NCBI RefSeq assembly: GCF_963921235.1
Contig: NC_086107.1
Span: 114,888,001-114,952,000 of the forward strand
From: Mobula hypostoma
Lineage: Eukaryota
DNA: 64,000 nt
Direction: 5' to 3'
Below, one piece after another: positions 2,993 to 53,252 of the stretch (positions within the stretch are counted from its first letter, which is position 1; every line of letters begins with the position of its first letter). The translations under genes were made by a program, and so were the position numbers. The notes under the pieces were generated by a model. That model was not told the DNA's origin. It made no database searches and saw nothing but the letters and a program-made list of their open reading frames with translations.

Positions 2993-3137
2993 CTATATAT
3001 CGGCCAGGTCGGAGAGGCTCATGGGGGATCCCAGCTGTAATTCCTGCTGCAGGGATTCCATCTCAGCTGGATGCATCCGGTGGACCTCCAGCCAATCAGC
3101 CAGCAGCGAAGCAGAGAGGGGGGCAGAGTCTGCCTGG
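2993..3137 (-). CDS. MAPK7: MAPK7 last coding exon (transactivation domain; TAG at 2995-2993)
   Basis: SQADSAPLSASLLADWLEVHRMHPAEMESLQQELQLGSPMSLSDLADI*; the six exons total 2772 nt = 923 aa + stop. Confidence 0.94.
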
Positions 3138-3185
3138 CTGCAGGGGAGGGGTGGAAGAAACACGATCAGACACTCACAGTGTCAC

Positions 3186-3971
3186 GTCAGACACAGAGTG
3201 AAGCTCTCTCCACACCGTCCCATCATACACTCCCGGGGTCAGACACAGAGTGAAACTCCCTCCGCACCGTCCCATCACACACTCCCGGGGTCAGGCACAG
3301 AGTGAATCTCCCTCCACACCGTCCCATCACACACTCCCGGGATCAGACACAGAGTGAAACTCCCTCCACACCGTCCCATCACACACTCCCGGGGTCAGAC
3401 ACAGAGTGAAACTCCCTCCGCACCGTCCCATCACACACTCCCGGGGTCAGACACAGAGTGAAGCTCCCTCCGCACCGTCCCATCACACACTCCTGGGGTC
3501 AGACACAGAGTGAATCTCCCTCCACACCGTCCCATCACACACTCCTGGGGTCAGACACAGAGTGAATCTCCCTCCACACCGTCCCATCACACACTCCCGG
3601 GATCAGACACAGAGTGAAACTCCCTCCACACTGTCCCATCACACACTCCCGGGGTCAGACACAGAGTGAAACTCCCTCCATACCATCCCATCGCACACTC
3701 CCGGGATCAGACACAGAGTGAAGCTCCCTCCACACCGTCCCATCGCACACTCCCGGGATCAGACACAGAGTGAAACTCCCTCCACACCGTCCAATCGCAC
3801 ACTCCCGGGGTCAGACACAGAGTGAATCTCCCTCCACACCGTCCCATCACACACTCCCGGGATCAGACACAGAGTGAAGTTCCCTCCACACAGTCCCATC
3901 ACACACTCCCGGGGTTAGATACGGAGTGAAACTCCCTCCACACCGTCCCGTCACACACTCCCAGGATCAGA
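3186..3971. repeat. 52-bp minisatellite, left arm (~15 units)
   Basis: Unit TCAGACACAGAGTGAA(A/G/T)CTCCCTCCACACCGTCCCATCACACACTCCCGGGG; period 52 (e.g. 3241->3293). Confidence 0.97.
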
Positions 3972-6110
3972 ACCGTCTGGGTTTGGTAATTGGACAGGTG
4001 GTCCATCCTGACCAATCTTACACAGTCCCGGGCCGCTCCATCCAGGACAATGTCCACCTAGTACGGGACCTGATCCACCTGCTCCAGGAGACTGGGTCCC
4101 CGGCAGCGTTTCTTTCTCTTGACCAGGAGAAGGCGTTTGACCGGGTGGACCACAGTTTCCTGCTGGGCACCCTGCAGGCTTTTGGGCTCGGACTACACTT
4201 TGTGGCCCGAGTTCGGCTCCTGTACTCTGCCGCAGAGTGCCTAGTTAAGATTAACGGATCATTGACAGGACCTATCCACTTCCGAAGAGGAGTGCGTCAA
4301 GGGTGCCCCATGTCCGGTCAACTGTATGCGATCTGTGTCGAGCCATTCCTCAGCCTTCTTCGGCGAAGGCTGACAGGTCTGGTTCTGCGCGAACCGGACA
4401 TGAGGGTCGTCCTCTCGGCCTACGCCGATGACGTACTCCTCATGATGACAGACCCCTGTGACCTGCGGAGGATGCGCGAGTGCCAAGATGTTTTCTCGAC
4501 GGCATCCTCCGCGAGGATCAACTGGGCGAAATGTTCCGGACTCTTAGTAGCCCAGTGGCAGGTGGACTCCCTGTTGGAGGAGATGAGAGCTTTTGAGTGG
4601 AGCACCAGACGCCTTCTCTATCTGGGAGTCTACCTGAGTCCTTCTGGGGAGACCTGGCTGGCGAACTGGCAGGACCTGGAGACAAAGGTCATGGGCCGGC
4701 TGGGGCGCTGGTCAGGCCTTCTCAGGCTGCTTTCCTATCGAGGCAGGGTGGTGGTCATAAACCAGCTGGTGGCCTCCATGTTGTGGTACCGGATGGTCAC
4801 CTTGGCCCCCCCTGCCCCTTTTGTCGCGGGAATGCAGAGGAAGCTAGTGGACTTCTTCTGGGGAAACAGGAAACACTGGGTCTCTGCAGCGGTTCTGAGT
4901 CTCCCAGAAGGAGAGGGCGGACAGTCGCTGGTGTGTGTACGCACACGACTGGCGGCTCTCCGCCTCAGGACCCTGCAGAGATTCTTGTACGCCGAGCACC
5001 CTCTCAGTGGACGTGTTGGCGACTTTCTTCCTCCGGAGGGGCTGCTGCCTTCACGAAGATATGCAGCTACCACCGGCAGGCGTTAGCCGTGCTGCTTTGC
5101 AGAGGCTGCCCGGCTTCTATCAGGACCTACTGAGAGTCTGGAACATGGTTGCCTCAGGCCGGGAATCCCCTCCTCTGGCAGAGGGTGGGGTCCTGGCCGA
5201 CCCTTGCCCTGCCTCAGCGGATGTCGGTGCGGCTCAGGTGTGTGGATCGACTCAGGCTGAGCTGCTCGTCGGGCCCAGGCCCCGCAGCCTTACCCGGGAG
5301 ACGAATCCACACAACTTGAGCCGTCTTTCATCGACACCCACAATCCCATTCAGGGATGCAGGCAGGAGGTACCTTTATGGGCTGCTGCTCCACACCCTCC
5401 ACTTCCTAGCCCTTGTCCACCGTCCCGACACGCCATGGCGGTCGGTCTTTCCACCTGGAGGTGAGGGGGGTCCCCAATGGAAGTCCCTTTACAAGGGAGT
5501 CCTCCCCATGCACCTTGGGGATCTCGGCTGGAGGGTGCTGCATAAAGCGGTGCCCTGAAATAAGTTCTTTAGTCTGTACACGGATCTCCCAGCCGCGTGT
5601 CACTTCTGCGGGCTGGAGGAGACCGTGTACCACATGTACGTGGAGTGTGTGGGGCTGCAGCCCCTTTTCGCGTATTTGCGTGGGCTGCTTCTCGCCTTCT
5701 GGTTGCATTTCAGTCCCACCCTATTCATATATGGTCATCCAGTAAGGAGGGGGGCACAGAGGGATGAGGATGTCCTTGTCAACTTGCTCCTGGGGCTGGC
5801 GAAAATTGCCATCCGTGGCTCCTGGAAAAGGGTGGCAGGAGGTTCTGCCCGGACGGACTGCCTGGCTATGTTTAGGGGGTATGTTCGTGCCCGGGTGAAC
5901 ATTGAAAAGGAATACGCACAGTCCACGGCGACCGTAGAGGTGTTCCGGGACCGTTGGGCTCCGCGGGGTGTAAATGCCATCATTGATGAGGATGGCAATA
6001 TATTGGTTTAAGATGTATTGTCTGTTTGTAGTGTAGTAAATATGTTAGTCACTGGTTTTGTAAATATTGTATAGCACCGACATTTGTAATAAAGAATTTT
6101 GTGAAAAAAA
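3972..6110 (+). mobile_element. 5'-truncated Tx1-clade (L1 group) non-LTR retrotransposon with degenerate ORF2
   Basis: RT motifs SLDQEKAFDRVDH, GVRQGCPMSG, AYADD; C-terminal CHFCG..ETVYH..VEC; frameshift ~5010, stop 5556-5558; AATAAA 6088, poly(A) 6104-6110; TSD AGGATCAGA at 3963-3971 and 6111-6119. Confidence 0.88.
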
Positions 6111-9100
6111 AGGATCAGACACAGAGTGAAGTTCCCTCCACACCGTCCCGTCACACACTCCCGGGGTCAGACAGAGTAAAACTCCCTCCACACTGTCCCA
6201 TCACACACTCCCGTGGTCAGACACAGAGTGAATCTTCCCTCCACACCGTCCCATCACACACTCCCGGGGTCAGACACAGAGTGAATCTTCCCTCCACACT
6301 GTCCCATCACACACTCCCGTGGTCAGACACAGAGTGAATCTTCCCTCCACACCGTCCCATCACACACTCCCGGGGTCAGACACAGAGTGAAACTCCCTCC
6401 ACACCGTCCCATCACACACTCCCGGGGTCAGACACAGAGTGAATCTCCCTCCACACCGTCCCATCACACACTCCCAGGGTCAGACACAGAGTGAAACTCC
6501 CTCCACACCGTCCCATCACACACTCCCGGGGTCAGACACAGAGTGAATCTCCCTCCACACCGTCCCATCACACACTCCCGGGGTCAGACACAGAGTGAAA
6601 CTCCCTCCACACCGTCCCATCACACACTCCAGGGGTCAGACACAGAGTGAATCTCCCTCCACACCGTCCCATCACACACTCCCGGGGTCAGACACAGAGT
6701 GAAGCTCCCTCCACACCGTCCCATCACACACTCCCGGGGTCAGACACAGAGTGAATCTCCCTCCACACCGTCCCATCACACACTCCCGGGGTCAGACACA
6801 GAGTGAATCTCCCTCCACACCGTCCCATCACACACTCCCGGGGTCAGACACAGGGTGAATCTCCCTCCACACTGTCCCATCACACACTCCCGGGGTCAGA
6901 CACAGGGTGAATCTCCCTCCACACTGTCCCATCACACACTCCCGGGGTCAGACACAGGGTGAATCTCCCTCCACACCGTCCCATCACACACTCCCGGGGT
7001 CAGATACAGAGTGAATCTCCCTCCACACCGTCCCATCACACACTCCCGGGGTCAGACACAGAGTGAATCTCCCTCCACACCGTCCCATCACACACTCCCG
7101 GGGTCAGACACAGAGTGAAACTCCCTCCACACCGTCCCATCACACACTCCAGGGGTCAGACACAGAGTGAATCTCCCTCCACACCGTCCCATCGCACACT
7201 CCCGGGGTCAGACACAGAGTGAAGCTCCCTCCACACCGTCCCATCGCACACTCCCGGGGTCAGACACAGAGTGAAACTCCCTCCACACCGTCCCATCGCA
7301 CACTCTCGGGGTCAGACACAGAGTGAAGCTCCCTCCACACCGTCCCATCACACACTCCCGGGGTCAGACACAGAGTGAAGCTCCCTCCACACCGTCCCAT
7401 CACACACTCCCGGGGTCAGACACAGAGTGAAGCTCCCTCCACACCGTCCCATCACACACTCCCGGGGTCAGACACAGAGTGAAGCTCCCTCCACACCGTC
7501 CCATCACACACTCCCGGGGTCAGACACAGTGAAGCTCCCTCCACACCGTCCCATCACACACTCCCGAGGTCAGACACAGAGTGAAGCTCCCTCCACACCG
7601 TCCCATCACACACTCCCGAGGTCAGACACAGAGTGAAACTCCCTCCACACCGTCCCATCACACACTCCCGGGGTCAGACACAGAGTGAAACTCCCTCCAC
7701 ACCGTCCCATCACACACTCCCGGGGTCAGACACAGAGTGAATCTCCCTCCACACCGTCCCATCACACACTCCCGGGGTCAGACACAGAGTGAAACACCCT
7801 CCACACCGTCCCATCACACACTCCCGGGGTCAGACACAGAGTGAAACTCCCTCCACACCGTCCCATCACACACTCCCGGGGTCAGACACAGAGTGAAACT
7901 CCCTCCACACCGTCCCATCACACACTCCCGGGGTCAGACACAGAGTGAATCTCCCTCCACACCGTCCCATCACACACTCCCGGGGTCAGACACAGAGTGA
8001 AACACCCTCCACACCGTCCCATCACACACTCCCGGGGTCAGACACAGAGTGAATCTCCCTCCACACCGTCCCATCACACACTCCCAGGGTCAGACAGAGA
8101 GTGAACCTCCCTCCACACCGTCCCATCACACACTCCCGGGGTCAGACACAGAGTGAAACACCCTCCACACCGTCCCATCACACACTCCCGTGGTCAGACA
8201 CAGAGTGAATCTTCCCTCCACACCGTCCCATCACACACTCCCAGGGTCAGACACAGAGTGAAACTCCCTCCACACCGTCCCATCACACACTCCCGGGGTC
8301 AGACACAGAGTGAAGCTCCCTCTACACCGTCCCATCACACACTCCCGGGGTCAGACACAGAGTGAAGCTCCCTCCACACCGTCCCATCACACACTCCCGG
8401 GGTCAGACACAGAGTGAAGCTCCCTCCACACTGTCCCATCACACACTCCCGGGGTCAGACACAGAGTGAATCTCCCTCCACACCGTCCCATCACACACTC
8501 CCGGGGTCAGATACTGAGTGAATCTCCCTCCACACCGTCCCATCACACACTCCCGGGGTCAGACACAGAGTGAAACTCCCTCCACACCGTCCCATCACAC
8601 ACTCCCGGGGTCAGACACAGAGTGAAACTCCCTCCACACCGTCCCATCACACACTCCCGGGGTCAGACACAGAGAGAAGGTCCCTCTACACCGTCCCATC
8701 ACACACTCCCGCGGTCAGACACAGAGTGAATCTCCCTCCACACCGTCCCATCACACACTCCCGGGGTCAGACACAGAGTGAATCTCCCTCCACACCGTCC
8801 CATCACACACTCCCGGGGTCAGATACTGAGTGAATCTCCCTCCACACCGTCCCATCACACACTCCCGGGGTCAGACACAGAGTGAAACTCCCTCCACACC
8901 GTCCCATCACACACTCCCGGGGTCAGACACAGAGTGAAACTCCCTCCACACTGTCCCATCACACACTCCCGGGGTCAGACACAGAGTGAAACTCCCTCCA
9001 CGCCGTCCCATCACACACTCCCGGGGTCAGACACAGAGTGAAACACCCTCCACACCATCCCATCACACACTCCCGGGGTCAGACACAGAGTGAATCTCCC

Positions 9101-10578
9101 TCCACACCGTCCCATCACACACTCCCGGGGTCAGACACAGAGTGAATCTCCCTCCACACCGTCCCATCACACACTCCCGGGGTCAGACACAGAGTGAAAC
9201 TCCCTCCACACCGTCCCATCACACACTCCCGGGGTCAGACACAGAGTGAATCTCCCTCCACACCGTCCCATCACACACTCCCGGGGTCAGACACAGAGTG
9301 AATCTCCCTCCACACCGTCCCATCACACACTCCCGGGGTCAGACACAGAGTGAAACTCCCTCCACACCGTCCCATCACACACTCCCGGGGTCAGACACAG
9401 AGTGAAGCTCCCTCCACACCGTCCCATCACACACTCCCAGGGTCAGACACAGAGTGAAACTCCCTCCACACCGTCCCATCACACACTCCCGGGGTCAGAC
9501 ACAGAGTGAATCTCCCTACACACCGTCCCATCACACACTCCCGGGGTCAGACACAGAGTGAAGCTCCCTCCACACCGTCCCATCACACACTCCCGGGGTC
9601 AGACACAGAGTGAATCTCCCTACACACCGTCCCATCACACACTCCCAGGGTCAGACACAGTGAATCTCCCTCCACACCGTCCCATCACACACTCCCGGGG
9701 TCAGACACAGAGTGAATCTCCCTACACACCGTCCCATCACACACTCCCGGGGTCAGACACAGAGTGAATCTCCCTACACACCGTCCCATCACACACTCCC
9801 GGGGTCAGACACAGAGTGAAGCTCCCTCCACACCGTCCCATCACACACTCCCGGGGTCAGACACAGAGTGAATCTCCCTCCACACTGTCCCATCACACAC
9901 TCCCGGGGTCAGACACAGAGTGAAACTCCCTCCACACCGTCCCATCACACACTCCCGGGGTCAGACACAGAGTGAAACTCCCTCCACACCGTCCCATCAC
10001 ACACTCCAGGGGTCAGACACAGAGTGAATCTCCCTCCACACCGTCCCATCACACACTCCAGGGGTCAGACACAGAGTGAAACTCTCTCCACACCGTCCCA
10101 TCACACACTCCCGGGGTCAGACACAGAGTGAAGCTCCCTCCACACCGTCCCATCACACACTCCCGGGGTCAGACACAGAGTGAAACTCCCTCCACACCGT
10201 CCCATCACACACTCCCGAGGTCAGACACAGAGTGAATCTCCCTCCACACCGTCCCATCACACACTCCAGGGGTCAGACACAGAGTGAAACTCTCTCCACA
10301 CCGTCCCATCACACACTCCCGGGGTCAGACACAGAGTGAAACTCCCTCCACACCGTCCCATCACACACTCCCGGGGTCAGACACAGAGTGAAGCTCCCTC
10401 CACACCGTCCCATCACACACTCCCGGGGTCAGACACAGAGTGAAGCTCCCTCCACACCGTCCCATCACACACTCCCGGGGTCAGACACAGAGTGAAACTC
10501 CCTCCACACCGTCCCATCACACACTCCCGGGATCAGACACAGAGTGAATCTCCCTCCACACCGTCCCATCACACACTC
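6111..10578. repeat. 52-bp minisatellite, right arm (~86 units)
   Basis: Same unit, highly homogeneous; fills the last MAPK7 intron. Confidence 0.97.
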
Positions 10579-10680
10579 CTTTGGGAACAGGAAGCCCCTT
10601 CCACAGCACCCCATCACTTCCGAAATGTGACACCGAGGGCAGGGTAGAGTTGGTGTGGAACCAGTGTGAGGATCACTCAC

Positions 10681-10808
10681 CTTTCCTGGGTCTCGCCCAC
10701 CATGTCGAAAGACTGATTGAGGAACTCCTCCAGATCGAAGCCCACTCCGTAGCCTGCCCCACTGCCCTTTGGTGTGACTGAGAAAACAGGCGGGAGCAGA
10801 TCCTTCAC
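10681..10808 (-). CDS. MAPK7: MAPK7 coding exon 5 (128 bp)
   Basis: Manual translation VKDLLPPVFSVTPKGSGAGYGVGFDLEEFLNQSFDMVGETQE is near-identical to the ERK5 C-terminal motif; AG acceptor, GTGAGT donor. Confidence 0.95.
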
Positions 10809-12960: not shown

Positions 12961-12996
12961 CGTACCAGGGAGCTGGTTGCTGTGTCCTGCCCCCAC

Positions 12997-14950
12997 AGTA
13001 CACCCGTTACCAAGTCCACCTGTACAACAGTACACTCATTACTGAGTACACCTCTACAACAGTCCACCTGTACAACAGTACACCCGTTACCGAGTCCACC
13101 TGTTACTGAGTACACCTGTACAACAGTCCACCTGTACAACAGTACATCTGTTACTGAGTCCACCTGTACAACAGTACACCTATTACTCAGTACACCTCTA
13201 CAACAGTCCACCTGTACAACAGTACACCTGTTACTGAGTCCACCTGTACAACAATCCACCTGTACAACAGTACACCTATTACTGAGTCCACCTCTACAAC
13301 AGTCCACCTGTACAACAGTACACCTGTTACTGAGTCCACCTGTACAACAGTACACTCATTACTGAGTACACCTCTACAACAGTCCACCTGTACAACAGTA
13401 CACCCGTTACCGAGTCCACCTGTTACTGAGTACACCTGTACAACAGTCCACCTGTACAACAGTACACCTGTTACTGAGTCCACCTGTACAACAGTACACC
13501 TATTACTCAGTACACCTCTACAACAGTCCACCTGTACAACAGTACACCTGTTACTGAGTCCACCTGTACAACAATCCACCTGTACAACAGTACACCTATT
13601 ACTGAGTCCACCTCTACAACAGTCCACCTGTTACTGAGTCCACCTGTACAACAGTACACTCGTTACTGAGTACACCTCTACAACAGTCCACCTGTACAAC
13701 AGTACACCTGTTACTGAGTACACCTCTACAACAGTCCACCTGTTACTGAGTCCACCTGTACAACAGTACACTCGTTACTGAGTACACCTCTACAACAGTC
13801 CACCTGTTACTGAGTCCACCTGTACAACAGTCCACCTGTACAACAGTACACTCGTTACTGAGTACACCTCTACAACAGTCCACCTGTACAACAGTACACC
13901 TGTTACCGAGTCCACCTCTACAACAGTCCACCTGTTACTGAGTCCACCTGTACAACAGTACACTCGTTACTGAGTACACCTCTACAACAGTCCACCTGTT
14001 ACTGAGTCCACCTGTACAACAGTCCACCTGTCACTGAGTACACCTCTACAACAGTCCACCTGTTACTGAGTCCACCTGTACAACAGTCCACCTGTTACTG
14101 AGTCCACCTCTACAACAGTCCACCTGTTACTGAGTCCACCTGTACAACAGTCCACCTGTTACTGAGTCCACCTGTACAACAGTCCACCTGTTACTGAGTC
14201 CACCTGTACAACAGTACACCTGTACAACAGTCCACCTGTTACTGAGTCCACCTGTACAACAGTACACCTGTTACCAAGTCCACCTCTACAACAGTCCACC
14301 TGTACAACAGTACACCTGTTACTGAGTCCACCTGTACAACAGTCCACCTGTTACTGAGTCCACCTGTACAACAGTACACCTGTTACTGAGTCCACCTCTA
14401 CAACAGTCCACCTGTACAACAGTACACCTGTTACTGAGTCCACCTGTACAACAGTCCACCTGTTACTGAGTCCACCTGTACAACAGTACACCCGTTACCG
14501 AGTCCACCTGTACAACAGTACACCCGTTACCGAGTCCACCTGTACAACAGTACACCCGTTACCGAGTCCACCTGTACAACAGTACACCTGTTACTGAGTA
14601 CACCTCTACAACAGTCCACCTGTTACTGAGTCCACCTGTACAACAGTACACCTGTACAACAGTACACCTGTTACTGAGTCCACCTGTACAACAGTACACC
14701 CGTTACCGAGTCCACCTGTACAACAGTACACCCGTTACCGAGTCCACCTGTACAACAGTACACCCGTTACCGAGTCCACCTGTACAACAGTACACCCGTT
14801 ACCGAGTCCACCTGTACAACAGTACACCTGTTACTGAGTACACCTCTACAACAGTCCACCTGTTACTGAGTCCACCTGTACAACAGTACACCTGTACAAC
14901 AGTACACCTGTTACTGAGTCCACCTGTACAACAGTACACTCGTTACTGAG
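12997..14950. repeat. 16-bp two-monomer minisatellite (~120 units) with higher-order duplications
   Basis: Monomers T(A/C)CACCT(G/C)TACAACAG and T(A/C)CACC(T/C)GTTAC(T/C)GAG; blocks recur at 320 bp (13021/13341) and 240 bp (14581/14821). Confidence 0.93.
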
Positions 14951-28689: not shown

Positions 28690-30733
28690 GGGTCAAAATT
28701 TAAAAAGATGACAGATACAGAATTGAAAGTTTTATATTTGAATGCATGCAGTACAGAATAAAGTAGATGATCTTGTAGTGCTGTTAGAGATGGGCAAGTG
28801 TGATGCTGTGGGCATCAATGAGTCATGGCTGAAAGGAGATTATGTTTGGGAGCTTAACATCCAATGACATACATTGTATCAAAAGGACAAGCAGGTGGGC
28901 AGAGGGTTAGTGTGGCTCTTCTGGGGAAAAAATGAAATCAAAGAGATGACATAGGATCAGAAGATTTAGAACTCTTGTGGGTACAGATAAGAAACTACAA
29001 GGGTAAACAGACCCTGATGAGGCCTCCAAACAGTAGCCAGGATGTGAGCTACAAATTACAATGGGAAATAGAAAAGGCTTGTTAAAAGGGCAATGTTACA
29101 ATAGTCGTGGGGGTTTTCAATATGCAAGTAGATTGGGAAAATCAGGTTTGGTGCTATATCCAAAGAGAGAGAATTAGTAGAATGTCTACAAGATGGCTTT
29201 TTAGAGCAGCTTGTGGTTGAGCCCACTAGGGGATCAGCTGTGTTGGATTGAGTATTGTGTAGTAGACTGGATTTAATTAGGGAGCTTAAGGTAAAGGAGC
29301 ACTTAGGAGGCAGTGATCATGATATGATAGAATTTCCCCTGCAATTTGAGAGGGAGAAACTAAAGTCAGATGTATCAGTATTACAGTACAATAAAAGGAA
29401 TTACAGTGGCACGAGTAAGGAGCTGGTCAAAGTTGATTGGAAGGGGACAGTGGCAGGGAAAGCAGCAGAGCAGCAATGGCTGGAGTTCCTGGGAGCAATT
29501 CAAAAGGTGCAGGATAGATACATCCCAAAGAAGAAGAATTATTCCAAAGTCAGGATGACACAACTGTGGCTGACGAAGGAAGTCAAAGCCAACATAAAAG
29601 CAAAAGAGTGAGCAAAAATTAGTGGAAAGTTAGAGGACTGGGAAACTTTTAAAAACCAACAGAAGGCAACTAAGAAAGCCATAAGGGTGAAAAAGATGAA
29701 ATATGAAGTTAAGCTAGCTAGCAATATAAAAAAAGTTTTTTTTTCGGGTATATAAAGAGTAAATGAAAGGCGGGAGTACATTTTTGACCACTAGAAAACG
29801 ATGCTGGAGAGGTAGTAATGGGGAACAAGGTTCTGGCAAACAAACTGAATAAGTATTTTGCATCAGTCTTCACTGTGAAAGACACTACCAATATGCTGGA
29901 ATCACTTGATTCTGGAATGGTTCCAGAGGACTGGAAAATTGCAAATGTCACTCCAGTCTTCTATAAGGGAGGAAAACAGATGCAAGGAAATTATAGGTCA
30001 GTTAGCCTGATCTCAGTGGTTAGGAAGATGTTGGGAGTCGATTGCTAAGGACTTGGAGGCACATGGTAGAATATGCCAGTCAGTGTGGTTTGATAAGGGA
30101 AAATCTTTCTTGACAAATCTGTTGGGATTCGTTGAGGAAATAATAAGCAGGGTAGACAAAGGAGAATTGGTGGATGTTCAGAAGGCCTTTGACAAGGTGC
30201 CTCACATGGTTGACAAGTTATGAGCCCATGGAGTTACAGGAAAGATACTAGCATGGATAGAACATTGCCTGGTTGACAGGAGGCAAAGAGTGGGAATAAA
30301 GGGAGCCTTTTCTGTTTGGCTGCTGGTAACTAGTGGTGTTCCACAAAAGTCAGTGTTGGGACCGATTCTTTTCACGTTGTATGTCAGTGACTTGGATGAT
30401 ATGGAATTGATGACCTTGTGGCCAGGATTGTGGATGATACGAAGGTAGGTGGAGGTGCAGGTCATGTTGAGGAAACAGGGAGGCTGCAGAAGACTTGGGC
30501 ATATTAGGAGGATGTGCAGAGAAGTGGCAGATGGAATGCAATGTTGGGAAGTGTGTGGTTATGCACTTTGATAGACGGAACAAAAGCATAGACTTTTTTC
30601 TGAACAGGGAGAAAATTGAAAAAACTCTGAGGCACAAAAGGACTTGGGATTCCTCGTGTAGGATTCCATAAAGGATAATTTGTCGGTTGAGTCATTAGTG
30701 AGGAAGGCAAATGAAATGTTAGCATTCATTTCA
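28690..30733 (+). mobile_element. Decayed CR1 ORF2 (endonuclease to RT); continues at ~31750-32360 after a nested insertion
   Basis: EHLGGSDHDMIEF, PEDWKIANVTPVF.KG, NYRSVSL, KAFDKVPH remnants. Confidence 0.85.
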
Positions 30734-39359: not shown

Positions 39360-42300
39360 TGTTACGTACCCCGTAACTGGGTTGCCAAACCAGCAGAAAT
39401 GGATCACTCAGTTGGAGTCTGGAGTACTAGAACTAAGAAAGTTTTATTAAAGAAACAAGCAACACAGTAATCGAAAGGATAATAAATGCAACAGTTCAGC
39501 GATGATAAACACACATGTGCACAGAATTAAGATAACAGCATCAATCAAGCTCTATCGTTGTCTAGGGGTAAATGACCAAATCTCAAAGTGACTCAAAGTT
39601 CAGTCCAGTTTAGTAGTTCAGTTCGCAGTAATCGTTGCCATGGCGATGGACAACGTGGGGGGAGAGAGAGATAGAACAGGAACAACTCATCATTCAGAAC
39701 GGCTTCACTCACAGACCGGCGAGTTGGCTCACAAGCAGCTTTTGGGCGGGTCCTTGGTGATGTCACCTGAGGTCACCGACTGTGACCCCTCCTCCAGATG
39801 CGGTCGATCCTCTGCAGTGAACCCGGCACCCAGGCAAGGGCGGACACACACCGGGTTCCCGCTGATCGTACCTTTCCACATTGGCCGTTGAGGCGTACCG
39901 CTTCCAGTGTCTCGTTACCTCGGGTGGCGTGTGTGTTGCCTTAGCGAACCTGTCCCTTTTAATCCCCCTGCTGGGGCATCGCCTGTCCACCACTTCAAAC
40001 AGTTCAGGGTTCAAAGGAGGAGCCGCTCCAGACAGCTCTCTCTCCCACGTCCCTTCATTACACATCTCCAGACGCTGCTCCATTTGTTCCTTATCTCTCC
40101 TTCCCCTGAGGGCAGGTGGCAGACCACTTGCTGATGTCACTGATGCTAACCCAGGCCAGCAAACATCTTAATTTTATGTGTATTCTCGTCACACTTCCCC
40201 CCTTTTAAGGATTTTTACCGGGAGGTAAAAATTACAAACATGAATACATTATTTGATACATACACAAATATACATCTTTATCAGCTATTTGGCTAACACA
40301 ACGAGTTTGAAGCTGTCAACACCTTGACAGACAGTCATCACATTTTCTGTTCCTTTTACACGTGTTATTAATAATCCCTTAGACCAGGCTCCAACTCAGC
40401 AAACTTCATAGTGGCCAAAAACACTGATGAATTGCGACCAATGTAACCTCTCATTTGGTTTTGTCCCGGACCACAATAACAAGGGTCGTCCCATTCCGAC
40501 TCAGTTTTCTCTCGCAAGGGCTTAGTAGGAGGGGGACGGGTATTGACCGCAGAGTTATTGCAAAACTTCCTGCAGTACCCCACCATCTCCAAGAGCCTTC
40601 TGAGGGCCCTCTTGTCTGTCGGGGTTGGGAGGTCAGCGATAGCCTGCACTGTAGCATTGCATCACTGCCAGCTGCCCCTGTGTCACCACAATTCCCAGGT
40701 AAGTGACCCTCGTGTGGCCGAATTCATTTTTTTCAAGGTTCACCATCAAACTGGCTTCAGACAGCCGTATTAAATTGCCAATACACACCTCTGTGTTCAT
40801 CAGCCCTTTAGTCACTGAATTACTCAAAAAAATATGGGTGTTGTATACTAGGCTGCCCTATTGTAACAGACATCACCCAACGTCCCAGTTCTTTTCATTT
40901 CCTCGGGACAATCAAACACACGGGTGCGAGTCGTTTAATTACTTCTTCTAAAGATTCGCTTTGTTCGGGGATTAAGGGAGAGACCTTATCAGTAGACCTG
41001 GCCAAAACAATAGCCTTCTCCCATCTGACCGATCCCATCCTAATCTTTTCAAAATGGTTTTTTCCTCTTATCAGGGGGCCCCTAGCTCCATTGATTTCCA
41101 CGCTAACACCGACTAGGTTTGTTAGCATATCAAAAGCCGGTGACCGTCTCAGTTCGCGTCGGTCATGATCAATAACATTTTTCCCCCTGGGCAGCCGGTA
41201 AATCTCTTTCATGATTCCACCAACTGTTTCCTCCAGCACCGCAAAATGTCCACCCCGGGGTACCTCGTGGGCCATGTTAAAAATCTCATCCCCATAACTC
41301 TTTTGCACCACCCCCCATTCCTCATCTGCGGATACTGTACTTGATTTCCCTTTCTTCCTTAGCACTTCCTCCTCCGCACAATAGTCTACTAGTTCCCTTG
41401 TCAAGGCTGTGTCAGAGAGAGCGGTCTCTGCCAAAACCATCAGATCCTCGTCTCGCTCCTGCGTCTGCACAAATTCTTTCCTGGCTACTGCTACGTCCGT
41501 CCCAGCTCCCTCACTAACTCTTGTCTCACTACACCCCGTCTCAAACAAGGTTGGCAGAAATGTTTCAGCTAAATTCACTATCGCGGGCCCGTGATGAACC
41601 TGTGAGTCCATGGGCGGGGCCTCAATGCTGGCAGGCTGACCTGTCAATCTCACGACTGGGAACACGATTCCTCCGGCGATGTCATTACCGAGCAAGACTT
41701 CCGCGTCTTTCATCGGTAATTCGGACCTCACCCCGATCGTGACTAGTCCAGAGACCAGGTTGCTCTGTAAGTGTATCTGGTGCAAAGGGACTGACTCTGT
41801 CCCTTCCCCAACACCTTTGACCTCTACCTCCCCAGTCTGGGTCTCTGAGCTAAACTCTAATACACTCTTCAGTATTAGTGACTGACACGCTCCCGTGTCT
41901 CTCCAGATCCGCACTGGAACTGGTTTTAACCTCTCCTTCACTGACACCAGTCCGGCCGAGATAAACCTCTCGCGCCCTTCCTGGACTTTTTCAGACCTGT
42001 CCTTCCCTAGCGGTTCGCTTAACAGCTCGATACAGCCATTCCAAATTTCCGCTTTTCCTTTCCCCGTCTCCTTCCTTGGGGCAAAGCACCTGGACGCAAA
42101 GTGTCCGGCTTTCCCACAATTATAACAGACGACCCCAGGAGACTTCCTACCAGACTGCTCCCGGTCTACCTTATCCTTTTCACTAGTCCCCGGCTTACTT
42201 TCTGACTTTTCCGGCGGACTCTCCCCGCCGTCCTGACTACCCTTCTGGTAGCCTTTACTCGGGGCAAACTTCATTTTATGCGTCAACGCATACTCATCCG

Positions 42301-44194
42301 CTAACTTAGCAGTTGCGGCTAACGTGGCTGCCTCTTTCTCATCGAGGTAGGGTCTCATACCCTCAGGGACACAACCTTTAAACTGCTCAATCAGAATCAG
42401 TTGTAGCAGTCTGTCATAATCCCCCTCTACCCCCTTCGAGGCGCACCAACGCTCACAATATGTCTGCATATCACGGGCAAACTCCAAATACGTGCGGTCC
42501 CACCGCTTCCTCGCATTCCGGAACCTCTGCCGGTATGCCTCCGGGACCAACTCATAAATCCCGAGGATGGCCTCTTTCACCACCTCATACCTCTGGGCAT
42601 CTTCCGCGGACAAAGCTGAGTAAGCTTCTTGGGCCTTCCCTTTCAGTACACTCTGAAGTAAAACAACCCACTTATCCCTCGGCCAGTCCTGACTTATAGC
42701 CACTTTTTCGAAGTGGAGAAAGTACCGATCCACGTCGGTATCGTCAAATGGGGGAACCAGCCTAACCTCCTGGGTCGCCCGGAACCCTCCACCTTGGTTC
42801 GGCACGAGCCCCTGCTCGACCCTTATCTTTAACTTCTCTCGCTCAAATTCCCTTTCCCTCTGTTCCTCCTCTCTCTCCAACTGTCTCTCTCTCTCTCTCT
42901 TGCCTTTCTACCTCTTTCTCTTTCTCCCACCTTTCTAACCTCTCTCTCCTGCCTTTCTAACTGCTTCTCTTCGTGTTCTAACTGCCGTACCCGGAACTCG
43001 TGCTCGAGTCTCAGTTTTTCAAGCTGTACCTGTACCACGTCTCCAGCAGGTTTTTCAATAGACACCACCCCCAGCTCACTTTGGGGAAACACACCTTTAG
43101 ATACACAGTGCTCTACAATAGCTCTGTGTATCTCCTCTCTCCTCATTGTCGACTTCACCTTAGCAAGATTCAACCGTTTGGCCACAGCTATCAATTCCGA
43201 TTTCCTGGCATCCTCTAATGCCTCCAAGGTCGGCGCCTTTATAAATTCCTCAGCCTCCATTTCTGCTGTTTGTCTTTTCTTTCTTTCGGGAATTTTAACC
43301 CAATCAATTTACTCCGTCCCAAATTTAGCGTTCAAAATCGCGGACGAGAACCCCACTTATGTTACGTACCCCGTAACATGGGTTGCCAAACCAGCAGAAA
43401 TGGATCACTCAGTTGGAGTCTGGAGTACTAGAACTAAGAAAGTTTTATTAAAGAAACAAGCAACACAGTAATCGAAAGGATAATAAATGCAACAGTTCAG
43501 CGATGATAAACACACATGTGCACAGAATTAAGATAACAGCATCAATCAAGCTCTATCGTTGTCTAGGGGTAAATGACCAAATTTCAAAGTGACTCAAAGT
43601 TCAGTCCAGTTTAGTAGTTCAGTTCGCAGTAATCGTTGCCATGGCGATGGACAACGTGGGGGGAGAGAGAGATAGAACAGGAACAACTGATCATTCAGAA
43701 CGGCTTCACTCACAGACCGGCGAGATTGCTCACAAGCAACTTTTGGGCGGGTCCTTGGTGATGTCACCTGAGGTCACCGACTGTGACCCCTCCTCCAGAT
43801 GCGGTCGATCCTCTGCAGTGAACCCGGCACCCAGGCAAGGGCGGACACACACCGGGTTCCCGCTGATCGTACCTTTCCACCCTGGCCGTTGAGGCGTACC
43901 GCTTCCAGTGTCTCGTTACCTCGGGTGGCGTGTGTGTTGCCTTAGCGAACCTGTCCCTTTTTATCCCCCTGCTGGGGCATCGCCTGTCCACCACTTCAAA
44001 CAGTTCAGGGTTCAAAGGGGGAGCCGCTCCAGACAGCTCTCTCTCCCACGTCCCTTCATTACACATCTCCAGACGCTGCTCCATTTGTTCCTTATCTCTC
44101 CTTCCCCTGAGGGCAGGTGGCAGACCACTTGCTGATGTCACTGATGCTAACCCAGGCCAGCAAACATCTTAATTTTATGTGTATTCTCGTCACA
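39360..44194 (-). mobile_element. Gmr1-like Ty3/Gypsy LTR retroelement 1, internally deleted, inserted in a Penelope-like remnant (~39055-39359 + 44195-44660)
   Basis: LTRs 39360-40193 and 43360-44194 (TG..CA, ~9 substitutions + 1 indel by eye); tRNA-Pro-like PBS TGGGGTTCTCGTCCGCGATT next to 43359; PPT 40194-40206; flanks GAGA/GAGG (imperfect TSD). Confidence 0.92.
40895..43260 (-). pseudogene. Element 1 Gag-protease-integrase remnant; frameshift in the (GA)n tract ~42880-42900
   Basis: SCAN-like LLQLILIEQFKGCVP, CCHC knuckle CYNCGKAGHFASRC, protease RDTGA, integrase N-terminal AHEVPRGGHF. Confidence 0.85.
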
Positions 44195-48102: not shown

Positions 48103-51100
48103 TGTTACGTACCCCGTAACTGGGTTGCCAAACCAGCAGAAATGGACCATTTGTTGGAGTCTGGATTACTAGGAACTAATAAAGTTTTATTAAAGAAATA
48201 AGTAACACAGTACTCTAATTGTAAGGATATAAACGTAACAGGTTAGCAATGATAATACTCACATGTACACAGAACTAGGGTAATAGGGATCAACCAAGCT
48301 CTATTGCAGTCTAGGCGTAAAATGATCAGTCTTAAGTGACGCAGAGTTCAGTTCAGCTTAGTACAGTTCACAGTAATCGCTGTTGTGCCATTGGAGAGAG
48401 AGAGAGGGAGGGGGATGGAATTTGATTCAGCCAGACCTTTGATGTCTTCGCAGTTGGTTTCGGGCAGACCCTTTTATGTCTTCTATCCCACTGTGGTCAC
48501 CGACTGTGACCCCTCCGTTCCGGATACGATCATTCTTTCGTGGTGAACCCGGCACCCAGGCAAGGGCGGACACACACACCAGGTTCCCACCCATCGTACC
48601 TTTAAACCCTGTGAGCCTCTGATCGGTTCCCGCGAACCGGACCTCCAAACTTCCACCAACTTGTGGGGGCACACCGCTTTTTCCAGGGTCTCGTGGTCTC
48701 GTGATCTCGTGGTGTGTCGTGTACCTTAACGAACCTGCTCTTTTTATCCCCCTGCTGGGGTATCACCTGTCCATCAAACTTCAAACAGTTCAGGTTCAAA
48801 GCAACCGGTCTGTCAATATTCTGAATTGTGTTTCTTTTCCGTTAATCCCTCTCTCCTCTCTTATTAGCATTTTGGATGTTTCTTCATTGTCTCTCTTATC
48901 TCTCCAATTAGCATCAATTGTCCGATAGCTTGGTTTGGCGTCACACCCCTACCCTTCAAAGGATTTTTACTGGGGTAAAAATCATGGGCATGAATGCACA
49001 TTATTAGATACACACTGATATATAGGATGATCAGCTATTCGGCTAATACAGAGAACTTTAAGTTTCAACACCTTGATAGACAGTCAGCAATCACATTGCC
49101 CGTTCCTTTTATATGTTTTATTTTAATATCAAATTCCTGTAAGACTAGGCTCTAACTTAGTAACCTTTTGTTTTTATCCTTCATAGTGGCTAAAAACACT
49201 AATGGGTTGTGATCAGTGTAGATTATCAGTGGTTTCCGTGCTGGACAAATATAAACCTCAAAATGTTGCAATGCCAGTACGATTGCCAGTAATTCCTTCT
49301 CCACAGTGGAATAATTTCTCTGATGGATATTAAATTTCTTAGAAAAATAAGCAACTGGGTGATCAACCCCTTCTGTCTGTCTGTATCAGCTTCGTCGCTA
49401 GCATCTGTTGCTAGGGAGAAGAGTTTTGAAAAGTCAGGCGCATTCAGCACAGGGTGGTGACACAGAATCGCTTTCAGACTCTCGAAGGCTTGTTGACAAA
49501 GGTCGTCCCACACAAACTTCGCATTCTTTGGCAAGAGCTTAGTAAGAGGGAGGGTAATATCCGCAAAGTTTTTGCAAAACTTCCGATAGTACCCCACCAT
49601 CCCCAAGAACCTTCTCAGGGCTCTCTTGTCTGTCGGGGTGGGGACTTCAGAGGTAACCTGCACCTTAACTTGCATCGGCGCCAGCTGCCCCTGTCCTACC
49701 ACAAATCCCATATCAGTGACCTTCGCATGGCCGAATTCACTTTTCGCGAGGTTCACCGTCAGGTTGGCTTCAGACAGCCGTTTAAACAGCTCCTCTACTG
49801 CCACAATGTGCTCCTCCCACGTGTCACTTCAGACCACTACATCGCCAATATACGCTTCTGCGTTCTCTAGCCCTTTTGTCACTGAATTAATCATCCTATA
49901 GGGGTTTTGCTTACTAGGCTGACTTAATGTGACAACAACATCATGTACCGTCCCTTTGCATCGCCCCGGGACATCCGGACATACGTCTGTGTGCCGGTTA
50001 ATTAGCTTTCTCAGCGGCTCGCTCTGTTCGGGGGTTAAGGGAGAGACCTTATCAGCAAAGTTGGCCAAAACAATAGAGCTGTCCAATCTGGTCGGCACCA
50101 TACTTATCTTTTCAAAATGGGTTTTCCCCTTATCAGGTGGCACCCTAGCCTCACTATCTTTCGTGATAACACCGACTAGGTCTGCTTCCTTATCGTGGTA
50201 AGCGGTTAACATATTAATAGGCTGTGTCAGCTCATGTCTACAATACTCAATAATATCCTTCCTCATGCTGGGCCAGTAAAACTCTTCCATAATTCTATCG
50301 ACTGTCTTCCTCACCCCAAAATGTCCACCGAGGGGTATCTTGTGGGCCAGGTTAAAAGTCTCATCCCCATAAATTTTCGGCACTACCACCTGGTGCACCA
50401 CCCCCCATTCCTCATCTGCGGGCACGGTACTTGGTCTCCATTTCCTCATTAGTACTCCCTCCTTCACATAATAGCCCACTGGCTCCTTTTTTAATTCTGC
50501 TTCAGAGAGAGCTGCCTCTGTCAAAACCATCAGCTCCTCATCTCGTTCCTGTGCCTGTATAAATTCCTTCCACGCTAATGATAAATCTACCTCAACTCCC
50601 TCACTTCCTTCTGCTCCACTATGCTCCTTCTTCCCACTTTCTAACCCCTCCTGGTACAAGGCTGGTAAAAACGTCTCAGCTAAATCTATATTCACTTCGG
50701 CAGCCTTTCTGGACGTGTGCCGAGTCACTGCGCAAATGGGATAAACCTGTGAGTCCATGGGCGGGGCCTCAGTCCTGGCAGGCTTGCTTGTCAGCTTTAC
50801 TGCTGGGTACACATCTCCACCTGCAAGGTCGTTACCGAGTAAGACCACCACGTCTTCCATCGGTAGTTCGGGCCTCACCCCTATTGTGACCGGTCTGGAG
50901 ACCAAGTCGCTTTTTAGGTATATCTGGTGCAAAGGTACTGCTTCAGTTCGTTTCCCAATGCCTTTTATCACACTAACCTCCCCAGTCTCAGTCTCTGAAC
51001 TAAAGTCTAACACCCTCCTCAAATCAATGATTGACAAGCCCCAGGGTCTCCAGATCCGTACTGGAACTGGGGTTGACCCCTCCTTCACCGACATCAATCC

Positions 51101-53252
51101 GGCTGAAATAAACTTCTCGCGTCCTTCCTGAACTCTATCAGACCTCTTCTCCCCTAGCGGTTTGTTTGCCGGCTCAATACAGCCAGTCGGAGTCGTCGTT
51201 TTTCCTTTCCCCGTCTCCTTCTTTGGGGCAAAACACCTGGACGCAATGTGACCGGCTTTCCCACAATTATAGCATACGACCCCAGGAGACTTCCTACCAT
51301 ACTGCTTCCTGTCTTCCTTATCCTTCTCACTAGTTCCCGGCTTACTTTCTGGCTTTTCCGGCGGACTCTCTCCGCCCTCTCGACTACCCTTCAGGTAGCT
51401 TTTACTCGGGGTAAACTTCGCTGTGTGTGTCAACGTGTACTCATCTGCTAACTTAGCAGTTGCGGCTAAGGTTTCTGCCTCTCTCTCATCTAGATAGGGC
51501 CTCATACCTTCAGGGACACAACCTTTAAATTGCTCAATCAGTATTAGCTGTAGCAGTGTGTCATAATCCCCATTGACCCCTTTTGAGGCACACCAACGCT
51601 CACAATACACTTGCATCTCACGGGCAAACTCTAAATACGTGCAGCCCCACTGCTTCCTCTCATTCCGGAACCTCTGCCGGTATGCCTCCGGGACCAACTC
51701 ATAAATCCTGAGGATGGCCTCTTTCACCACATCATACCTCTGGGCACCTTCGGCGGACAATGCGGAGTAAGCTTGTTGGGCTTTCCCTTTAAGTACGCTC
51801 TGAAGTAACACAGCCCACTTATCCCTCGGCCAGTCCTGACTTGCAGCGACTTTTTCAAAATGTAGAAAGTACCGATCAACATCGGCCTCCTCAAATGGGG
51901 GAACCAGCCTAACCTCCTGGGTCGCCCTGAACCCTCCACCTTGGTTCGGCATGGGCCCCTGCTCTGCCCTTATCTTTAACTTCTCCAGCTCAAATTCCCT
52001 TTCCTTCTGCTTCTCTCTCCCCTCCCGTTCCAACTGCTTTATTCGGAACTCCTGCTCTCGTCTCAATTTTTCCATCTGCAGCTGCACTGCTTCTCCACCA
52101 GGTTTGCTCATAGATACCACCTCCAGCTCCCCTTGGGGAAACACACCTTTAGATACATAATGCTCTACGATAGCTCTGTGTATCTCCTCTCTCCTCATTG
52201 TTGACTTCCCCTTAAAAAGATTCAACCGTTTTGCAACAGTTGCCAATTCTGATTTCCTGGCATCCTCTAATGCCTCCAAGGTTGGCGCCTTTAGAAATTC
52301 CTCAATCTCCATTTCTGCTGTTTGCCCTTATTTTCTTTCGGGAATTTTAACCCAATCAATTTACCCAGTCCCAAATTTGGCGTTCAAAATCCCGGACGAG
52401 ACCCCCACTTATGTTACATACCCCATAACTGGGTTGCCAAACCAGCAGAAATGGACCACGCGTTGGAGTCTGGTTTACTAGAAACTAATAAAGTTTTATT
52501 AAAGAAATAAGTAACACAGTACTCTAATCGTAAGGATATAAATGTAACAGGTTAACAATGATAATACACACATGTACGCAGAACTAGGGTAATAGGGATC
52601 AACCAATCTCTATCGCAGTCTAGGCGTAAAATGATCAGTCTTAAGTGACGCAGAGTTCAGTTCAGCTTAGTACAGTTCACAGTAATCGCTGTTGTGCCGT
52701 TGGAGAGAGAGAGAGGGAGGGGGATGCAATTTGAATCAGCCAGACCTTTGATGTCTTCGCAGTTGGTTTTGGGTGGACCCTTTTATGTCTCTATCCCACT
52801 GTGGTCACCAACTGTGACCCCTCCGTTCTGGATACGATCGTTCTTCTGTTGTGAACCCGGCACCCAGGCAAGGGCGGACACACGCACCAGGTTCCCACCC
52901 ATCGTACCTTTACACCCTGTGAGCCTCTGGTCGGTTCCCGCGAACCGGACCTCCAAACTCGCACCAACTTGTGGGGGCACACCGCTCTTCCAGGGTTTCG
53001 TTATCTCATGATCTTGTGGTGTGTCACGTGCCTTAGCGAACCTGCTCTTTTTATCCCCCTGCTGGGGTATCACCTGTCCATCAAACTTCAAACAGTTCAG
53101 GTTCAAAGTAACCGGTCTGTCAATATTCTGAATTGTGTTTCTTTTCCATTAATCCCTCTCTACTCTCTTATTAGCATTTTGAATGTTTCTCCATTGTCTC
53201 TCGTATCTCTCCAATTAGCATCAATCGTCCGACAGCTTGGTTTGGCGTCACA
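48103..53252 (-). mobile_element. Gmr1-like Ty3/Gypsy LTR retroelement 2, internally deleted, antisense in VKORC1 intron 1
   Basis: LTRs 48103-48945 and 52412-53252; perfect TSD ACTG (48099-48102/53253-53256); tRNA-Pro-like PBS TGGGGGTCTCGTCCGGGATT; PPT next to 48946. Confidence 0.94.
49829..52312 (-). CDS. Element 2 Gag-(PR)-truncated IN-truncated RT ORF, 827 aa; same frame resumes after one TGA into an RT-thumb/RNase H remnant (to ~49380)
   Basis: Gag and CCHC knuckle, IN zinc finger HKIPLGGHFG..FYWP..YC, RT start KQNPYRM fused to AYIGDVVV, then RRFLGMVGYYRKF and LATDASD. Confidence 0.8.
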   Translation of the reverse strand: MEIEEFLKAPTLEALEDARKSELATVAKRLNLFKGKSTMRREEIHRAIVEHYVSKGVFPQGELEVVSMSKPGGEAVQLQMEKLRREQEFRIKQLEREGREKQKEREFELEKLKIRAEQGPMPNQGGGFRATQEVRLVPPFEEADVDRYFLHFEKVAASQDWPRDKWAVLLQSVLKGKAQQAYSALSAEGAQRYDVVKEAILRIYELVPEAYRQRFRNERKQWGCTYLEFAREMQVYCERWCASKGVNGDYDTLLQLILIEQFKGCVPEGMRPYLDEREAETLAATAKLADEYTLTHTAKFTPSKSYLKGSREGGESPPEKPESKPGTSEKDKEDRKQYGRKSPGVVCYNCGKAGHIASRCFAPKKETGKGKTTTPTGCIEPANKPLGEKRSDRVQEGREKFISAGLMSVKEGSTPVPVRIWRPWGLSIIDLRRVLDFSSETETGEVSVIKGIGKRTEAVPLHQIYLKSDLVSRPVTIGVRPELPMEDVVVLLGNDLAGGDVYPAVKLTSKPARTEAPPMDSQVYPICAVTRHTSRKAAEVNIDLAETFLPALYQEGLESGKKEHSGAEGSEGVEVDLSLAWKEFIQAQERDEELMVLTEAALSEAELKKEPVGYYVKEGVLMRKWRPSTVPADEEWGVVHQVVVPKIYGDETFNLAHKIPLGGHFGVRKTVDRIMEEFYWPSMRKDIIEYCRHELTQPINMLTAYHDKEADLVGVITKDSEARVPPDKGKTHFEKISMVPTRLDSSIVLANFADKVSPLTPEQSEPLRKLINRHTDVCPDVPGRCKGTVHDVVVTLSQPSKQNPYRMINSVTKGLENAEAYIGDVVV

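Follow-up and report, generated by a model that had tools for sequence, protein, structure and literature searches.

A recent Tx1-clade LINE copy in an intronic 52-bp minisatellite of Mobula hypostoma and the likely target preference of its family

The inserted copy

Here, we analysed a window of 64,000 nucleotides from Mobula hypostoma (assembly GCF_963921235.1, contig NC_086107.1, positions 114,888,001 to 114,952,000, forward strand; positions below are those of the window) in which a long interspersed nuclear element (LINE) of the Tx1 clade lies within a 52-bp minisatellite. The minisatellite fills the last intron of a MAPK7-like gene, and the LINE is antisense to that gene. The locus is best explained, with good though not full confidence, as a recent, dead copy from an elasmobranch (ray-type) Tx1 family of high copy number with a preference for one site in the dispersed 52-bp minisatellite. 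The preferred site would read CCC(A/G)^GG(A/G)TCAGACACAGA, and the targeting appears to be a preference rather than absolute. The array and the insert comprise the following features.

3186..3971, unstranded: 52-bp minisatellite to the left of the insert, 15.1 units (Tandem Repeats Finder, TRF), with greater divergence and more of the GGATC variant
3963..3971, plus strand: left target-site duplication, AGGATCAGA, exact 9 bp
3972..6110, plus strand: 5′-truncated Tx1-clade LINE copy of 2,139 bp (2.14 kb), without ORF1 and without endonuclease
3974..5016, plus strand: reverse transcriptase (RT) and thumb portion of ORF2, recognized by Pfam RVT_1 and ended by a frameshift at about 5008-5016 (frame change in tblastn)
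5016..6011, plus strand: remaining ORF2, with a premature stop at 5556-5558, a C-terminal Cys/His motif and the natural stop at 6009-6011
6012..6111, plus strand: AT-rich 3′ untranslated region (UTR), 27% GC, carrying AATAAA at 6088 and, at 6104-6111, an A8 tail
6111..6119, plus strand: right target-site duplication, AGGATCAGA, with its first A common with the tail
6115..10579, unstranded: 52-bp minisatellite to the right of the insert, 85.9 units (TRF)

A poly(A) tail, a 5′ truncation and an alteration of the target site are all present. The target-site duplication measures 8 or 9 bp, the first A of its right copy being also the last A of the A8 tail, and removal of the insert with one duplicate brings back the spacing of the array (52, 52). 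The frame at 3974-5083 matches Pfam RVT_1 (E 1.6e-28). Thus, the initial annotation was right to describe a 5′-truncated, poly(A)-tailed Tx1-type element in register within the array. It was equally right that the endonuclease is missing, because the copy starts at about residue 545 of the 1308 residues of ORF2 of Tx1L, the Xenopus laevis element. In addition, about 70-90 codons of ORF2 present in relatives are absent near 5204-5244. The copy is dead. No stable RNA fold was found in the 3′ UTR, which folded no better than shuffled sequences (z +1.6), and no second copy of the LINE occurs within the window. Two further occurrences of AGGATCAGA, at 28953 and 32608, are related to neither the LINE nor the 52-bp repeat.

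By its RT sequence, the element is assigned to the Tx1 clade. Tx1L is the nearest named full-length relative, with 59% identity over 341 RT residues; the matches to its ORF2 cover residues 545-884 at 59% and 1046-1292 at 42%. In a tree of 44 RT pieces, all of them matches of the window query and midpoint-rooted with no outgroup from other clades, the window copy falls into a group (100/98) with two other proteins and a gene model of Hemitrygon akajei (89%), and the enclosing group (100/99) holds 16 of the 44 rows, including Tx1L and turtle elements.

Junctions of other copies and the target preference

The case for targeting rests on several independent junctions at the same base and strand of the repeat. 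Contigs from 4 of 24 sequencing runs, the organisms of which are coded, were aligned to positions 5531-6130, that is, the 3′ end of the LINE plus 20 bases of repeat, yielding 741 contigs for X4, 25 for X9 and 3 for X1; the raw-read run X19 yielded 0 reads. The family is high copy. Two high-depth X1 contigs differ from the window copy at just 4 of 226 and 3 of 376 bases, so that the window copy is young. Junctions were counted among the best-supported 13 of 143 rows of loose ends and 19 of 777 pieces, and 6 of these 13 rows, which by eye resemble a diverged element, were removed before flanks were counted.

Of the four 3′-junction rows listed, two, accounting for 5 of 7 contigs (four from X4 and one from X9), enter the repeat at the same base and on the same strand as the window copy, with the tail followed by GGGTCAGACACAGA or GCGTCAGACACAGA. 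The 14-mer core GGGTCAGACACAGA matches the window 96 times, always within the array, against 0.02 matches expected. The 3′ junction base and orientation are thus fixed across the window copy, the four X4 contigs and the X9 contig, in two organisms. In the third row (X9), an 11-mer of the unit is matched 11-12 bases upstream and the sequence then diverges; the fourth (X4) has ACACAGAGTG, but its flank matches nothing in the window even when 3 mismatches are allowed.

The 5′ flanks listed (three rows and one joint) are likewise divided: two of four match the repeat, namely, X9 at 6037 and the X4 joint at about 5860, each with 3 matches in the array and 0 expected. They stop about 5 and about 13 bases short of the 3′ site, so that the 5′ junction varies, from the 9-bp duplication in the window to these shorter flanks elsewhere, whereas the 3′ junction stays fixed. 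The truncation points, 3972, 6037 and about 5860, all differ, which implies three separate insertion events and argues against a single insertion amplified along with its array. The X1 flank at 5695 and the X4 flank at 6102 resemble a second tandem repeat that has ACACAGAG in common with the 52-bp unit.

Read depth adds a rough measure. In X4, the last, repeat-only bin has a summed depth of 856, compared with 8-11 for lone contigs, which corresponds to about 45-90 lone-contig equivalents where chance at one register would give, roughly, at most about 1; summed depth is not a copy number. In X1, the depth of this bin is 0, which suggests that pure repeat contigs were not aligned.

Several points weigh against a family with this target. 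Among the listed junctions, two of the four 3′ rows fall out of register or in a different sequence, and two of the four 5′ flanks are not the 52-bp repeat. The four on-target contigs of X4 agree at only 0.73, and the last bin holds merely 7-16% of the X4 family depth, a lower bound at best. The rows listed are the best supported, which favours repeated flanks; the 20 repeat bases in the reference help on-target contigs to clear the length threshold; and, with 0 reads from X19, the on-target counts come from contigs alone. Finally, the closest whole endonuclease, P0297, which serves below as a proxy, is tied to the window only via the Hemitrygon model (89% to the window RT). With these points counted, we still judge it likely that the window copy belongs to a target-preferring family. 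The initial annotation had suggested that most copies joined to the repeat in one orientation would support homing. Same-strand entry into the repeat is borne out by 5 of the 7 listed contigs; “most copies” is not, given that two of the four listed rows lie elsewhere and that contigs give no share.

The most viable alternative, which we hold to be tenable but the less favoured account, refines the satellite preference rather than excluding it: the endonuclease would read a short motif, approximately YCA/YCG^GG followed by a tract like ACACAGAG; several repeats would contain this motif, and the minisatellite would be its commonest carrier. All four listed 3′-junction rows start with G-G or G-C after the tail, and a flank in each of two runs, 3′ in X4 and 5′ in X1, resembles the second repeat carrying ACACAGAG. 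Furthermore, one group of 5′ flanks in X4 ends in a sequence resembling the duplication of the window copy, and an X9 junction is found 11-12 bases upstream, within a stretch that looks like repeat. The endonuclease of R1Bm offers a parallel, as it reads a consensus of 5 bases (PMC1919474) and its hairpin is as long as that of P0297 (PMC1950540). Yet the basis is four rows read by eye, one of them a mixed consensus (agreement 0.6), and the two 3′ rows with different tails may belong to other subfamilies with other targets.

An improbable alternative is that a few chance insertions in an abundant satellite were multiplied by expansion of the array or by segmental duplication. Tandem arrays amplify their contents, and the depth of some junction contigs exceeds that of lone ones (46.3 in X4; 4.45 in the shallow X1 run). 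But copies with three different truncation points abut the repeat, the unit variant entered is not the same in all 3′ flanks, two organisms show the same register and strand, and the chance of one junction falling at the register is below 0.001 even if the repeat made up 10% of the genome. The X1 junction contig, at a depth of 4.45 in a shallow run where the element has about 11, may itself reflect amplification or duplicate reads. That the family has no target preference and the window copy came to lie in a 5-kb array by chance is very improbable: the one locus alone, in a family of high copy number (741 X4 contigs), would be compatible with it, but the recurrence of same-base junctions in other copies contradicts it.

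Under the favoured reading, a family preferring the 52-bp minisatellite, the steps from nick to resolution can be sketched from established LINE biology. The APE endonuclease of the family would nick the bottom strand at a pyrimidine-to-purine step, 5′-TGATCC(T)^GGGAG-3′, and the freed end would prime reverse transcription on the poly(A) tail (target-primed reverse transcription). Reverse transcription would have halted after about 2.1 kb, with the second strand resolved 8-9 bp downstream, presumably with some variability. The precise 3′ and variable 5′ junctions have counterparts in Utopia and R2 (PMC4640811).

The minisatellite and its surroundings

The initial annotation had noted that the insertion duplicates a minor variant of the unit. 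As a description of the 9-bp duplication AGGATCAGA, this stands; as a required target, it does not. Of 100 units overall, 7 carry the GGATC variant, the target unit counted; to the left of the insert it occurs in 5 of the 14 other units, compared with 1 of the 85 to the right (Fisher p 1.5e-4). Being rare overall but locally common, its duplication says little about preference for a variant, and the in-register junctions of other copies lead into GGGTCAGA or GCGTCAGA; a preference for the GGATC variant was therefore rejected. CCAGG, present in 6 of 100 units including the target unit, is a weak hint. Units left of the insert differ from the 52-bp consensus at a mean of 2.2 positions, compared with 1.2 to the right; the LINE may separate homogenizing domains of the array, or may merely lie in its older edge.

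The host gene, on the minus strand, was identified as MAPK7-like via a kinase exon, and its two nearest exons bracket the array.

2993..3137, minus strand: last coding exon of the MAPK7 (ERK5)-like gene, ends approximate (supported by its translation, acceptor and stop)
10680..10808, minus strand: penultimate exon of the MAPK7-like gene, approximate ends (reading frame bounded by GT-AG)

The former is probably a MAPK7 exon, going by the C-terminus of ERK5. A lone 28-bp fragment resembling the 52-bp unit (89%) lies at 462-489, 2.7 kb from the array, and another tandem array, with a 32-bp unit, about 60 copies and higher-order periods, occupies 12995-14950, between other exons of the MAPK7-like gene. 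Downstream of the gene, a 21-bp tandem repeat extends over 1486-1791 (14.6 copies). On the minus strand, 40897-43308 and 49228-52327 hold two related long frames that are presumably gag-pol-like, from a long terminal repeat (LTR) retrotransposon.

The endonuclease, known systems and implications

The endonuclease has to be considered in relatives. In P0297, the APE domain is intact, matches Pfam Exo_endo_phos and keeps the catalytic motifs; over 59 residues, it is 96.6% identical to an endonuclease fragment in the Hemitrygon model, and P0297 may belong to a sister subfamily. Its predicted structure aligns with the L1 endonuclease (L1-EN) over 203 residues (Z 24.4, root-mean-square deviation 2.2), with a pLDDT of 96 at the loop. 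In another relative, P0295, an APE domain is joined to an RT 73% identical to that of the window. The specificity hairpin of P0297 has 7 residues compared with 11 in Tx1L. A loop could be located in 15 of 25 proteins, the other 10 giving no pattern match: it has 7 residues in four proteins, among them two near-identical copies and one protein from the horn shark Heterodontus; 8 in two; and 11 in nine, among them Tx1L and turtle elements. In PMC1950540, the Tx1L hairpin is given 11 residues and the R1Bm loop two fewer than that of L1, and grafting in L1, Tx1L and R1Bm affects both activity and site choice. The short loop may be tied to the target preference of the family.

Other sequences of this lineage deserve mention. 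P0259, P0294 and P0295 are near-identical pieces of Tx1 ORF2, each from an 18,092 bp contig, and may represent a head-to-tail array of a sister family. In the Hemitrygon and Heterodontus gene models P0028 and P0296, pieces of this Tx1 lineage are fused to other sequence, probably as annotation artefacts; in P0296, the Tx1 part continues into the translation of a low-complexity repeat. Satellite-coded peptides fused to Tx1 proteins were found in 0 of 226 proteins, a metagenome scan of 586 stretches turned up a single locus, weak and unrelated, and the repeat pattern had 0 matches in viral contigs and 0 in prokaryote contigs.

The Tx1 clade is one of three groups rich in target-specific families (PMC4640811), with targets that include U2, U5, 5S, microsatellites, transposons and satellites (PMC4494074). 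The window family appears to work like Tx1L, the type element of the clade: like that element, it would combine an APE endonuclease (here known from relatives) with an RT, and it has a fixed insertion site in a multicopy target (PMC1950540, PMC4494074). The Tx1L target, Tx1D, is however a piggyBac derivative, not a 52-bp minisatellite, its hairpin has 11 residues as against 7 in the proxy, and the preference of the window family looks partial. Kibi, Koshi, the crocodilian (TTCC)n/(TTTC)n families, Tx1-Mar and Keno are likewise Tx1-clade elements preferring repeated targets, but the targets differ, being microsatellites, a Mariner transposon and U2 genes. Keno itself, which is U2-specific, was tried and rejected, as Rfam gives 0 matches in 3100-6500 (E up to 1) and the flanks are the 52-bp repeat. 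R1Bm, of the R1 clade, differs in clade and in target (28S rDNA); its APE hairpin, two residues shorter than that of L1 and hence 7 by count, resembles P0297 in loop length alone, a likeness that does not show a shared specificity.

Satellite-targeting Tx1 families are a listed class, marked “Sat” in Fig. 3 of Kojima 2015 (PMC4494074); going by the figure legend, they have the same clade and target class as the window family. Hence, of the proposal in the initial annotation that an undescribed family homes to this satellite, the preference is supported, through the same-base junctions of other copies, while the class is not new. In the same paper, “target specific” is a working term for families with >20% of flanks in the target; here, the share is 5 of 7 listed 3′ contigs, a biased sample, versus 7-16% by summed depth, a floor. 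A literature search that left most subscription journals and Repbase Reports outside its range found no shark or ray Tx1 family described as targeting this repeat. Judged against the literature rather than by comparison with Repbase or Dfam, this would be a new family with a new target, practising a habit already known in the Tx1 class. Landing in intronic tandem repeats may amount to a safe-haven strategy.

For a vertebrate group that is poorly catalogued, the finding contributes a Tx1 family that is young, high in copy number and provided with a defined minisatellite target; it is of use for repeat annotation and possibly as a source of dated markers within arrays. Specialists would expect families of this kind, and a more useful lead lies in the short hairpin across the lineage, given that the loop influences target choice in the grafting work on L1, Tx1L and R1Bm (PMC1950540). 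It is conceivable, although on balance we doubt it, that in the shark and ray Tx1 lineage the hairpin shrank from 11 to 7-8 glycine-rich residues, a length also found in R1Bm, and that these elements read a short motif common to several unrelated tandem repeats and switch targets as satellites turn over. If true, close endonucleases differing in their targets would form a natural series within this lineage, and the choice of sites by APE endonucleases could be tested on it.

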